Assembly (NCBI GenBank): GCA_951406725.2
Contig: OX597831.1
Location: 54,250,001 to 54,314,000 of the forward strand
Source: Octopus vulgaris
Lineage: Eukaryota
Direction of reading: 5' to 3'
DNA: 64,000 nt
Position numbers and translations under genes: made by a program
Notes under the pieces: generated by a model
Told to the model about the DNA's origin: nothing
Seen by the model: only the letters and a program-made list of their open reading frames with translations
Databases searched by the model: none
In this document: positions 46,401 to 47,832 of the stretch, piece by piece
Layout: the number at the start of each line of letters is the position of its first letter
How positions within the stretch are numbered: the first letter of the stretch is position 1

Positions 46401-47832
46401 TCCAACCGAACACGTTTTGGTTTTTCTCAGACGAGAAAAATTTCTGCCAGGATCTGATGCTGAACACACAGACCAACCGTTGGCTTGCCGTGTCCCCAAA
46501 ACACGCACTGAGAGTAATAAAAATCAAACATCCAGTCAATATCATGGTGTCTGGGGTGATCACTAGTGATGGCGACGTTATGCTTCCATTTATCTTCACA
46601 CACGGCCTCAAACTCAACACGGATGCCTACATCAAGTGCCTGAAGGAGATAGTGCTGCGCTGCGTCAAGAGGGTCGCTGTCAGTTGACACTATGTCTAGC
46701 AACAGGATTCTCCACCATGCCACACAAGCAGGAGAACCCAGCCATGCTGTCAGACAATTTCTGTGACAACATCACCACTAACATCTGGCCACCTAACTCT
46801 CCACACTGCAACCCCTTTGATTATTATGTGTAGGAGGCAGTTGAACGAGAAACCAACAAAACTCCTTGTAACACCAAAGATTAACTGAAGGCAAGGATTA
46901 TGGCAACATTCACCAACTTAAACAAGGAGACCGTCCAGAAGAGTTGCGGAAGATTCCGAAGTCGTCTGGAGGCCGTGGTTGAAACCAATGGCGATTTTAT
47001 TGAATAAATTTACTATTTAATATTTGAAGTTATTTTCATGCAATTTGGGTAAATATATCTGTTAAAATGAGATGTCAGTGTTATTTTCATTTTTGCATAT
47101 ATACATGCACCCTATATATATATATTTCGTTTTTGGATTTGGTTTGCAAGATTCTTTATGTAAGTTCGTGTGTTGAAGCATATTCTGTTGTGTCTAAGGA
47201 GAGTCATTTTCTTTTTGTGCCTTATAATTTAACACACTCACCGGTAAAATTTGCACTTATTCCTTATTTTTATTTTCCTAAAATTTTCGATGCGTCTTGC
47301 AACCTTTTCAATAGTCTTATATATATATATATATATATATATATATATATATATATATATATATATATATATAGAGAGAGAGAGAGAGAGAGAGAGAGAG
47401 AGAGAGAGAGAGAGAGAGAATAAGTACTAGGCTTCCAAAGAATAAGTCCTGGGGGTCGATTTTCTCGACTAAAGGCGGGTACTCCAGCATGGCCGCAGTC
47501 AAATGACTGAAACAAGTAAAAGAGTAAAAATGAACTGAGGTAAAATAAGGAATGTGTTTTCTTTATTTTAAACTTCTCTTTTTTTTTTTTTTGCAGAAAC
47601 TTCGCTCAGTCCAGTTTGGATAATTGTTATTGTCGAAGCTGGTCTTTTACTGCTTTTGCTGGCAATCATCATCGAATTGGCACGCACACGTAAACTCCGT
47701 CCCCAAGCAAGACAAGTGAGTTCCACGTCTGTGCATAACAACGTCACCGCTGACACAGCTGATGAAGAACAACCAATATTCCAGCCAGGAAACCCAACTT
47801 ACAGAACCTATAATGCTGCCGAGAATTCATAG
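18508..47832 (+). CDS. TYR: Spliced gene (5'-partial): membrane-bound tyrosinase / tyrosinase-related protein (type-3 copper protein, TYR/TYRP1/DCT-like); join(18508..19469,37122..37256,39652..39796,47597..47832)
   Basis: All introns are GT..AG with matching phases (1|0|0|1). The joined translation is continuous: EGF-like Cys-rich domain, CuA (H-x25-H-x8-H), CuB (HNQ|VH...DPVFQLHH), APPGH...MVPFFP...LGYDY, TM helix, tail, then TAG at 47830-47832. The symbol is family-level; exact orthology to TYR versus TYRP1/DCT is untested. Confidence 0.9.
19780..21570 (-). mobile_element. Cluster of RLE-LINE 3' fragments (19780-20655, 20750-21010, 21290-21570) interleaved with (TATG)n
   Basis: ORFs 19984..20352 ([27 protein letters not shown]...[19 protein letters not shown]) and 20460..20657 ([13 protein letters not shown]). 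Confidence 0.85.
21570..21880. repeat. (TG/TATG)n followed by (TAGG/GGGA)n microsatellite
   Basis: Seen directly. Confidence 0.95.
22380..22740 (-). mobile_element. Diverged RLE-LINE C-terminal fragment
   Basis: ORF 22300..22605 contains [21 protein letters not shown], shared with the other copies. Confidence 0.65.
24130..24248. repeat. (GAT/GAC)n microsatellite
   Basis: Seen directly. Confidence 0.95.
26320..26790 (-). mobile_element. tRNA-derived SINE family B (internal CA/TA microsatellite)
   Basis: Body gaagacacttgc...gtggaactgaa...ggaaccatgtggttg. Other copies at 15105-15275(+), 27235-27625(-), 31735-32045(+), 41330-41690(+), 43695-44072(-), 45113-45480(+), 47418-47525(+) and 60672-61085(-). 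Confidence 0.8.
27235..27770. mobile_element. SINE B (minus) fused to a SINE A body (plus)
   Basis: ...ggaaccatgtgg runs directly into ttctgagttcaaattccgccgaggtcgac at about 27620. Confidence 0.75.
28766..28954. repeat. Compound (GAT)(GGT)(CGT)(GAT)n microsatellite
   Basis: Seen directly. Confidence 0.95.
28990..29390 (+). mobile_element. LINE reverse-transcriptase fragment (domain 0-2 region)
   Basis: [12 protein letters not shown], then a ..[21 protein letters not shown] and EQKGCR-like stretch with stops. Confidence 0.7.
29463..30000. repeat. Tandem duplication of a ~145-bp unit (29463-29607, 29847-29995) embedded in (CATA)n
   Basis: Both copies read atagaaagatagaaaacttcgaattacccgcccttg...cccattttgtattttatatatatacat with few substitutions. 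Confidence 0.9.
30070..31550 (+). mobile_element. 5'-truncated RLE-LINE
   Basis: [36 protein letters not shown] and RPDIVLLD...VEVSC. The 3' UTR is shared with 12590-12772. Preceded directly by (CATA)n. Confidence 0.85.
36500..36800 (-). mobile_element. tRNA(Arg)-like SINE family D upstream of exon B
   Basis: Minus-strand head ggaggcgtatggccgagaggttagagcagcggactcgcggtcgagggatcgttggttcgaatctc. Confidence 0.8.
37122..37256 (+). CDS. TYR: Tyrosinase exon B (135 nt, phase 0-0): CuB site
   Basis: ttttctcag|GTC CAT...TCA GAG|gtaagt. Encodes [45 protein letters not shown], which aligns without gaps to the human TYR CuB region ([29 protein letters not shown]). Missed by the ORF track. Confidence 0.95.
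37600..37900 (-). mobile_element. SINE family D downstream of exon B (third, partial copy at 40870-41057)
   Basis: Minus-strand head ggaggcgcaatggcccagtggttaggacagcggactcgcggtcggaggatcgcggtttcgattccc. Confidence 0.8.
38505..38860 (+). mobile_element. SINE family A, two copies
   Basis: Same head and body motifs as 7146-7545. Confidence 0.75.
39652..39796 (+). CDS. TYR: Tyrosinase exon C (145 nt): C-terminal part of the luminal domain
   Basis: ttctttgacag|CTG...CCG A|gtaagt. Encodes [48 protein letters not shown], matching the TYR-family APIGHN...MVPF.P...LGYDY motif. Confidence 0.93.
39889..40548. mobile_element. Oppositely oriented SINE family A pair (39889-40110 +, 40320-40548 -)
   Basis: + copy: gagttcaaattccaccgaggtcgactttgcctttcatcctttcgg. 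- copy: cccaaaaggatgaaaggcaatgtcaacctcggcgggatttgaactcagaacg. Confidence 0.85.
41706..42340 (-). mobile_element. Non-autonomous Helitron (635 bp) with internal minisatellite
   Basis: The minus strand begins A|TCTATATATATAAA and ends with hairpin CCCGAGCAACGCCGGG, 9 nt, then CTAG|T. These are the canonical 5'-TC, 3'-CTAG, A/T insertion site and subterminal hairpin. Three internal repeats of aatgcattaaaaatg...aatcgtagactcat. Confidence 0.85.
42400..42725 (-). mobile_element. mariner transposase N-terminal (HTH) fragment
   Basis: ORF 42476..42868 contains NINAVYG...QWWFQK...[26 protein letters not shown]...[17 protein letters not shown], the typical mariner HTH region. Confidence 0.75.
45846..47112 (+). 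mobile_element. Decayed DD37D (maT)-type transposon, copy 2, in the last tyrosinase intron
   Basis: WFFSDEKNF...QQDSPPCH...[15 protein letters not shown]. Restoring one frameshift gives 37 residues between the 2nd and 3rd catalytic Asp. Contains internal stops. Left end: tacagaatgcaatgggtaaattgtcacc. Confidence 0.85.
47597..47832 (+). CDS. TYR: Tyrosinase terminal exon D: transmembrane helix and cytoplasmic tail
   Basis: Long poly-T tract then gcag|AA, phase 1, matching exon C. Encodes (K)[77 protein letters not shown]. Hydrophobic stretch at 47614-47673 is followed by a basic stop-transfer segment (RTRKLR). Confidence 0.88.

Follow-up and report, generated by a model that had tools for sequence, protein, structure and literature searches.

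A 64,000-nucleotide stretch of Octopus vulgaris DNA (contig OX597831.1 of assembly GCA_951406725.2, positions 54250001 to 54314000; hereafter the window) carries four coding exons of a predicted membrane tyrosinase, the last of which encodes a transmembrane segment and a cytosolic tail with the motif DEEQPIF (47761–47781, residues 519–525). Because its core EEQPIF keeps the Glu at -4, the Gln at -2 and the Pro at -1 of known sorting signals, aligns with a nemertean DETPLV, and has precedents in the IL and FI pairs of other proteins, it is probably a variant acidic dileucine-like sorting signal. We also consider it reasonably likely, judging from the sequence, that the signal is recognized by an adaptor protein (AP) complex at the site between sigma and large subunits and that the enzyme is delivered to a lysosome-related pigment granule. 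Coordinates are those of the window, residue numbers are those of the annotated protein CAI9736171.1, and all four exons lie on the forward strand.

In the mechanism we favor, E520 would meet a basic patch, and I524 and F525 would meet hydrophobic pockets at the junction of the large and sigma subunits of AP-1, AP-2 and/or AP-3. Carriers leaving the trans-Golgi network, endosomes or the cell surface would then take up the enzyme and bring it to a lysosome-related pigment organelle, whose lumen the catalytic domain would face. Squid expression points to the chromatophore pigment granule as the most likely organelle in coleoids. The tyrosine block that follows the motif would be a second conserved element and not a canonical mu-subunit signal. 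A preliminary description of this tail had proposed AP-3 specifically; however, TYR is bound by AP-1 and AP-3, whereas TYRP1, whose signal has its Glu at -5, is bound by AP-1 only (PMC3418312). AP-3 is thus not singled out, and a dominant role for it, with AP-1 and AP-2 accounting for the rest, is put forward tentatively.

The tail motif and its conservation

The transmembrane segment (47611–47673, residues 469–489) is identified by hydropathy (mean Kyte-Doolittle value 3.0 over 19 residues), by conservation (17 of its 21 columns are invariant) and by an AlphaFold helix. That helix, residues 469–495 with a block predicted local distance difference test (pLDDT) score of 70–80, is the sole confident part of a model built on an eight-sequence alignment, the mean pLDDT being 35, and the low confidence in the tail is uninformative. 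The basic cluster RTRKLR (47683–47700, residues 493–498) is predicted by the positive-inside rule to act as a stop-transfer signal; the order of membrane segment and basic cluster before the tail is as the preliminary description had it. From homology to TYRP1, the 52-residue tail is predicted to be cytosolic. Its motif places D519 at -5, E520 at -4, Gln at -2, Pro at -1, I524 at 0 and F525 at +1, and the Glu lies about 30 residues (28–30) from the membrane, so the motif is not membrane-adjacent. The 17 residues from the start of the motif (residues 519–535) are encoded in frame by 47761–47811 of the terminal exon.

A Glu within the membrane segment, E477 (47635–47637), is invariant in cephalopod orthologues, and a second Glu, E490, stands at its cytosolic end. 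In the nemertean Tubulanus a Glu stands almost at the position of E477, and none of the six other homologues compared has one inside the hydrophobic stretch; E477 may serve in helix pairing or pH sensing. The linker ahead of the motif also holds a Ser/Thr-rich patch, T-S-x-H-x-N-x-T-A (47725–47757), that is kept across cephalopods.

Acidic dileucine signals have the consensus [DE]xxxL[LI] (PMC4114066), the acidic part of which is present here in both E520 and D519, but by sequence the motif is not a canonical member of this class. The likeness to vertebrate signals claimed in the preliminary description consequently survives in the acidic residue, Q-2 and P-1, and fails for the strict consensus. 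The ExxPLL subtype, which is common to melanosomal signals and was defined in PMC3418312, is matched at Glu -4 and Pro -1, with EEQP invariant. These positions matter in the vertebrate proteins: a change at Q-2 or P-1 of the human TYR signal EKQPLL ended binding to all three adaptors, and changing E-4 to D in OCA2 eliminated AP-3 binding (PMC3418312). Pairs other than LL are known from VMAT2, whose KEEKMAIL is used with AP-3 (PMC9016777), and from VGLUT2, whose FI motif pulled down AP-1, AP-2 and AP-3; DEEQPIF fits the broad dileucine-like class as defined in the latter work (PMC5662623). Yeast EQQPLL is an AP-3 signal (PMC4649669), and hagfish TYR carries the non-LL form ELQPFL, a predicted signal.

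Every one of the 11 cephalopod sequences that extend into the tail, octopod and cuttlefish alike, has EEQPIF unchanged. These are from O. vulgaris, O. sinensis, O. bimaculoides, Argonauta hians and Sepia pharaonis, together with further records that include P0012 and P0212, the latter added by a short-protein search on the C-terminal region and bearing a tail of the type seen in record P0003. Record P0004 represents a distinct lineage that groups with the Sepia cluster. The pattern of Glu, Gln-Pro and two hydrophobic residues that had been picked out from the octopus sequence is thus preserved, and loss of the motif among orthologues was looked for and not found. In an alignment of five cephalopod sequences, six of the seven DEEQPIF columns are invariant versus 10 of 29 in the linker (one-sided Fisher p = 0.021), as are 16 of the 21 columns of residues 519–539 (p = 0.004 versus the linker), although these p values and those given below are only indicative, because the sequences share ancestry and the windows were picked post hoc. 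The signal peptide has three invariant columns of 27 in the same alignment. When the tail was shuffled 200,000 times, ExxP plus two hydrophobic residues arose in 0.5% and ExQP plus two hydrophobic residues in 0.04% of shuffles, against 8.7% for a loose [DE]xxx plus two hydrophobic residues, 3.6% for YxxY and 24% for YxxPhi (Phi being L, I, M, V or F), all of these patterns having been selected after the motif had been seen.

Downstream of the motif is the tyrosine block YxTYNAAE (47800–47823, residues 532–539). Its YRTY is YKTY or YSTY in orthologues, and the invariance of both tyrosines suggests that the block matters. It is not a YxxPhi signal: YRTY, YKTY, YSTY and YNAA all fail that pattern, and no YxxPhi was present in the seven cephalopod tails scanned, so the earlier reading of YRTY as a tyrosine sorting motif is not supported. 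The NPxY-like NPTY (47791–47802), absent from the preliminary description, is found in all four octopod sequences and is DPSY in the other three tails scanned (Sepia pharaonis, P0003 and P0004). NPxY motifs serve as endocytic or recycling signals.

Searches with other resources added little on the tail. The PDB had no match to it at E ≤ 10, Pfam gave only sub-threshold matches of the last exon to transmembrane families, and the matches in the ESM Atlas were tyrosinase clusters dominated by chordates, none of which bears on the tail. The literature search found no study of the octopus tail or of the sorting of a cephalopod tyrosinase, which is weak evidence because few subscription papers were covered.

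Related tails and the ancestry of the motif

A search of 1.8 billion representative sequences gave 145 new representatives, 10 of which were looked up. The 13 vertebrate-like matches, the borderline P0074, P0020 and P0032 were left out, and the set contains no TYRP1 tail. A tail was found by the transmembrane caller in 37 of 152 sequences; those of Myxine and Priapulus were missed and were cut by hand.

The top non-cephalopod match is a tyrosinase-like protein of the nemertean Tubulanus polymorphus (P0026; E = 1e-104, 41% identity), and the match runs into the tail. From the linker on, the Tubulanus and octopus tails align without gaps: DEEQPIF, 30 residues from the membrane, is matched by DDETPLV, 32 residues from it, and Y535 by a Tyr. 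The score of this alignment was reached by 1 of 2000 shuffles, by 5 and 3 of 5000 in a second run, and by none of 5000 when the Argonauta tail was used. The nemertean protein differs from that of octopus in its LV pair, in a different loop at the second copper site (CuB), and in a longer tail, further along which stands an NPNY.

Among the 11 named non-cephalopod tails, six have an acidic dihydrophobic motif, seven have YxxPhi, and 10 have at least one of these, with motifs lying between 6 and 59 residues away from the membrane. The acidic form is that of the nemertean, three vertebrates and two trematodes, in one of which the E stands at -5. YxxPhi takes its place in Priapulus, two hemichordates and one amphioxus, and another amphioxus tail has neither. 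Nearly all of these membrane tyrosinases across Bilateria therefore bear an endosomal-type signal, with swaps between the acidic dileucine and YxxPhi classes, and from the sequences an address of this type looks ancient in the family. For the dileucine form, a single origin with losses and two separate origins are about evenly probable. A spiralian ancestor with the LV or LL form is the probable source of the octopus motif, which would make IF a derived, fixed variant. The preliminary description had allowed for ancient or convergent targeting; inheritance within Spiralia is the part that is probable, whereas a common origin of the spiralian and vertebrate signals is unsupported because the tails do not align, the positions differ, and the priapulid, hemichordate and amphioxus homologues have YxxPhi or nothing.

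The cephalopod proteins group with other spiralians in a 20-row tree (support 99/98). A special affinity to vertebrates, or transfer, was considered and rejected, since the approximately unbiased (AU) test on that tree excluded a clade of cephalopods, tunicates and vertebrates (p-AU 0.011). In a quick 49-row tree the cephalopod clade was unplaced, outside a weak group of deuterostomes plus Priapulus. There were no bivalves or gastropods among the named matches, which cover just 10 of the 145 new representatives.

Two further observations concern these tails. Those of Priapulus (P0035) and Saccoglossus (P0024) share GYQPI, and the octopus motif has QPI (47770–47778); this is either chance or a QP-hydrophobic core that would be read as YxxPhi or as dileucine-like depending on lineage. 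The trematode proteins P0036 and P0031 are membrane tyrosinases with C-terminal EKTRLL and EQSRSLL, and their clade stands apart from the tyrosinases of Fasciola and Schistosoma, in which no transmembrane segment was called.

Expression, destination and rival explanations

In the marker table of a Loligo vulgaris head atlas (PMC9839350), tyrosinase has a single row, that of transcript bdece67-path0, whose blastx annotation is the O. bimaculoides orthologue XP_014779110.1. This transcript, detected in 34.6% of cells there versus 2.3%, ranks fourth among the markers of cluster 8, which the atlas authors named chromatophores and whose 85 markers include TDO, myosin VI, prosaposin, Rab32 and GIPC3. 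Rab32 and myosin VI act on or shape melanosomes (PMC6080934). The chromatophore proteome of Doryteuthis lists two "tyrosinase-like" proteins, 19991 and 20501, together with Rab32, and the pigment is xanthommatin (PMC6397165). The conserved, slightly non-standard tail motif suggests, without proving it, that the same delivery route operates in cephalopod color cells as in vertebrate pigment cells.

Because expression points to chromatophores and the pigment there is xanthommatin, the target organelle may be an ommochrome granule and not a melanosome, which makes doubtful the melanosome targeting first proposed. TDO feeds ommochrome, not melanin, synthesis, and insects use a peroxidase for the step that couples 3-hydroxykynurenine. 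The atlas authors word the role of TDO otherwise (PMC9839350). The CuB loop of the octopus protein (within 37122–37256) has L382, A385 and F/Y387 versus V, S and N in most homologues. The F/Y ahead of the DP was found only in the five cephalopods among 21 rows, and six positions ahead of that DP all five have Leu, versus Val in 10 of the 16 other homologues. The gamma subclass of tyrosinases has a Val placeholder residue above the active site (PMC3658974); Leu382 occupies the presumed placeholder position, an assignment of our own, and DCT and several flatworm proteins are also without Val. Substrate preference may accordingly differ from that of TYR, as far as these residues can indicate. In an extended scheme, coleoid chromatophore granules would be lysosome-related organelles assembled with Rab32, myosin VI and AP-type sorting, and the IF-type signal would send this single vertebrate-like membrane tyrosinase to them. 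Given the xanthommatin in the granule, the co-expression of TDO and the differing CuB loop, the enzyme may there serve ommochrome and not melanin synthesis, as an o-aminophenol oxidase that couples 3-hydroxykynurenine. The structural relatives of the protein include an o-aminophenol oxidase; we nonetheless rate this scheme, which has circumstantial support, as unlikely.

That the protein is the ink tyrosinase was considered and is unsupported, because neither the two UniProt accessions nor four diagnostic peptides are among the entries listed for the O. vulgaris ink proteome (PMC10142993), where a membrane protein could of course be missed, and because a quantitative PCR primer for Sepia ink "tyr" (PMC13739555) encodes VVVPYW versus FSFPYW in the family of the octopus protein. 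In Sepia ink, trans-Golgi tyrosinase vesicles fuse with premelanosomes (reviewed in PMC4052311). An Argonauta preprint (10.1101/2021.07.10.451900) describes two cephalopod tyrosinase clades.

A number of observations weigh against an AP-dependent sorting signal. Neither leucine of [DE]xxxL[LI] is present, I524-F525 being found in all 11 tails, and the precedents that turned up have IL, FI or FL, none of them IF. The motif is about 30 residues (28–30) from the membrane, whereas most melanosomal signals are 6–11 residues from it; this is a tendency to which OCA2 is the exception, its signal targeting the melanosome from 70 residues away in a position-independent manner (PMC3418312). Set against the luminal domain (281 of 441 columns invariant), neither the motif nor residues 519–539 stand out in conservation (p = 0.22 and 0.18), and since these residues are conserved throughout, a single longer binding site would fit equally well. 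The match to Tubulanus is weaker for P0003 (reached by 21 and 52 of 5000 shuffles) and absent for P0004 (442 and 797 of 5000), and the other 10 named tails, including those of vertebrates, align no better than shuffles. YxxPhi, at 24% of shuffles, is easily produced by chance. As to expression, the link to squid is through a blastx annotation; cluster 9 of the atlas shares the markers Rab32, myosin VI, TDO and prosaposin; the atlas marker table does not include AP-3 subunits, and the AP-1 subunits listed there belong to other clusters. The tyrosinase-like entries of the Doryteuthis proteome carry no accession.

One rival explanation is an AP-2 internalization signal, perhaps aided by NPTY in octopods. 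The enzyme would cycle via the surface, other determinants would target it, and there would be no AP-3 or AP-1 step, the proposal being otherwise compatible with the one we favor. It draws on the tendency of membrane-distal acidic dileucines toward internalization and on the less rigid, broader AP-2 pocket (PMC3418312), on the FI of VGLUT2, which is essential for endocytosis (PMC5662623), and on the occurrence of NPTY in four of four octopods and of NPNY in Tubulanus. We regard it as unlikely: the OCA2 signal serves melanosomal delivery from 70 residues away whatever its position, E-4 and P-1 are features tied to AP-3 and AP-1 binding (PMC3418312), and NPTY is replaced by DPSY in Sepia and P0004.

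Similarly improbable is that the whole 21-residue block, EEQPIFxPGxPxYxTYNAAE, is a site for some other partner (an SH2, PTB or PDZ-type scaffold, a motor adaptor or a kinase), the dileucine likeness being incidental or a relic inactivated by the change from LL or LV to IF. The 16 invariant columns do extend beyond the hexamer, both leucines have been replaced, the loose acidic-dihydrophobic pattern arose in 8.7% of shuffles, and the squid chromatophore cluster has both GIPC3 and myosin VI among its markers. However, the E-4/Q-2/P-1 pattern is rare by chance (0.04–0.5%) and is aligned with the nemertean DETPLV, and a dead signal is not expected to be invariant between octopods and cuttlefish. 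PDZ ligands have fixed C-terminal residues, unlike the last three of this tail, which vary (ENS, ENT or ETS). It is very improbable that the tail holds no signal, its conservation being passive or its annotation wrong. Its conservation is indeed not above that of the luminal domain (p = 0.18–0.22) and few independent lineages were sampled, but the exon joins in the right phase and its translation equals the annotated protein, and the signal peptide (3/27) and linker (10/29) have drifted while the motif has not.

Since the gene is annotated and the class of signal is known, the IF variant is a modest result as a lone finding. As a naturally fixed variant, it tests the tolerance of the AP dileucine pocket, and it provides a defined cargo and a two-residue change for asking how chromatophore granules arise and whether they are lysosome-related. 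It also distinguishes a membrane tyrosinase from the other tyrosinases that have been studied in ink.

The gene and its comparison with known systems

The window is repeat-rich animal DNA in which the coding exons were located by their open frames and splice sites. The first exon found (18508–19469, residues 50/51–370) has matching splice ends and translation and encodes a Cys-rich/EGF-like region, the histidines H185, H211 and H220 of the first copper site (CuA), and H368 of CuB; taken alone, it matches Pfam Tyrosinase at E = 7e-19 and TYRP1 structures at E = 4e-52. The second (37122–37256, residues 371–415) encodes H372, H394 and H395 of CuB and the loop L382/A385/F387 ahead of D388, and the third (39652–39796, residues 416–463/464) encodes the end of the luminal domain. 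The terminal exon (47597–47832) opens at a polypyrimidine/AG acceptor (47596/47597) and encodes residues 464–541, comprising the transmembrane helix and cytosolic tail, followed by a TAG stop (47830–47832). All four exons have GT-AG ends and compatible phases. Their spliced product is identical to residues 51–541 of CAI9736171.1 (491/491), with 490 identical positions in O. sinensis and 464 in O. bimaculoides. The first exon of the gene is probably upstream of the window, because residues 1–49 had no tblastn match within it. The 17.6 kb intron 19470–37121 divides CuB between H368 and H372; four database records read into this intron, ending just past the splice site, and are uninformative on the tail.

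The full-length protein matches the Pfam tyrosinase domain at E = 6e-36; among solved structures TYRP1 comes closest (E = 6e-76 over residues 28–455), hemocyanin scoring 3e-50. By these matches it is a TYR/TYRP-family membrane tyrosinase, of type I topology with a dicopper site, and its architecture places it in the gamma subclass; tyrosinase activity is a prediction, as TYRP1 and DCT have the same fold. The spacing H-n-H-8-H in CuA and H-3-H-n-H in CuB is shared by the alpha and gamma subclasses, and gamma proteins have a Phe four before H3 and an Asp four after H3 of CuB (Aguilera et al. 2013, PMC3658974). The putative metal-site histidines of the octopus protein (H185, H211 and H220; H368, H372 and H395) and its F216, F391 and D399 agree with these gamma features. 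So does its architecture, the Cys-rich region and transmembrane segment lying in the window and a hydrophobic N-terminus preceding QFP in the full-length record. The named close matches are all from phyla that bear gamma tyrosinases, the trees having been built without an alpha-subclass outgroup.

Elsewhere in the window are transposon relics at 54979–55671 and 42479–42898 (both reverse strand) and at 8742–8990 (forward strand), comprising Tc1-like DDE and helix-turn-helix, Mos1-type helix-turn-helix, and weak reverse transcriptase matches. Two similar broken frames on the forward strand, at about 684–1621 and at 45960–47004, appear to be copies of a single mariner-like element; Pfam gave no match to any of the three pieces that were scanned. 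An Rfam scan of the window gave no match.

Relative to known systems, the octopus protein shares with the gamma-subclass tyrosinases its putative signal peptide, Cys-rich region, CuA and CuB spacing and transmembrane segment, although Table 1 of that classification places molluscan tyrosinases under alpha only (PMC3658974). The synaptic and dense-core vesicle proteins VMAT2 and VGLUT2 resemble it in having acidic residues four to five places before a non-LL hydrophobic pair (IL and FI) and in their use of AP adaptors, but they are unrelated polytopic proteins, VMAT2 is without a Pro at -1, and neither has IF. The signals of vertebrate TYR (EKQPLL), TYRP1 and OCA2 share E-4, Q-2, P-1 and two bulky hydrophobic residues with the octopus motif, and differ in having LL instead of IF and, for the three vertebrate tails, in lying 6–15 instead of about 30 residues from the membrane. 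The comparison with TYR is the closest in kind, as the two enzymes are homologous type I membrane tyrosinases and in both tails tyrosines follow the motif; however, the octopus tail has no downstream YxxPhi, unlike TYR of Ascaphus (YQSI), and the two tails do not align beyond chance.

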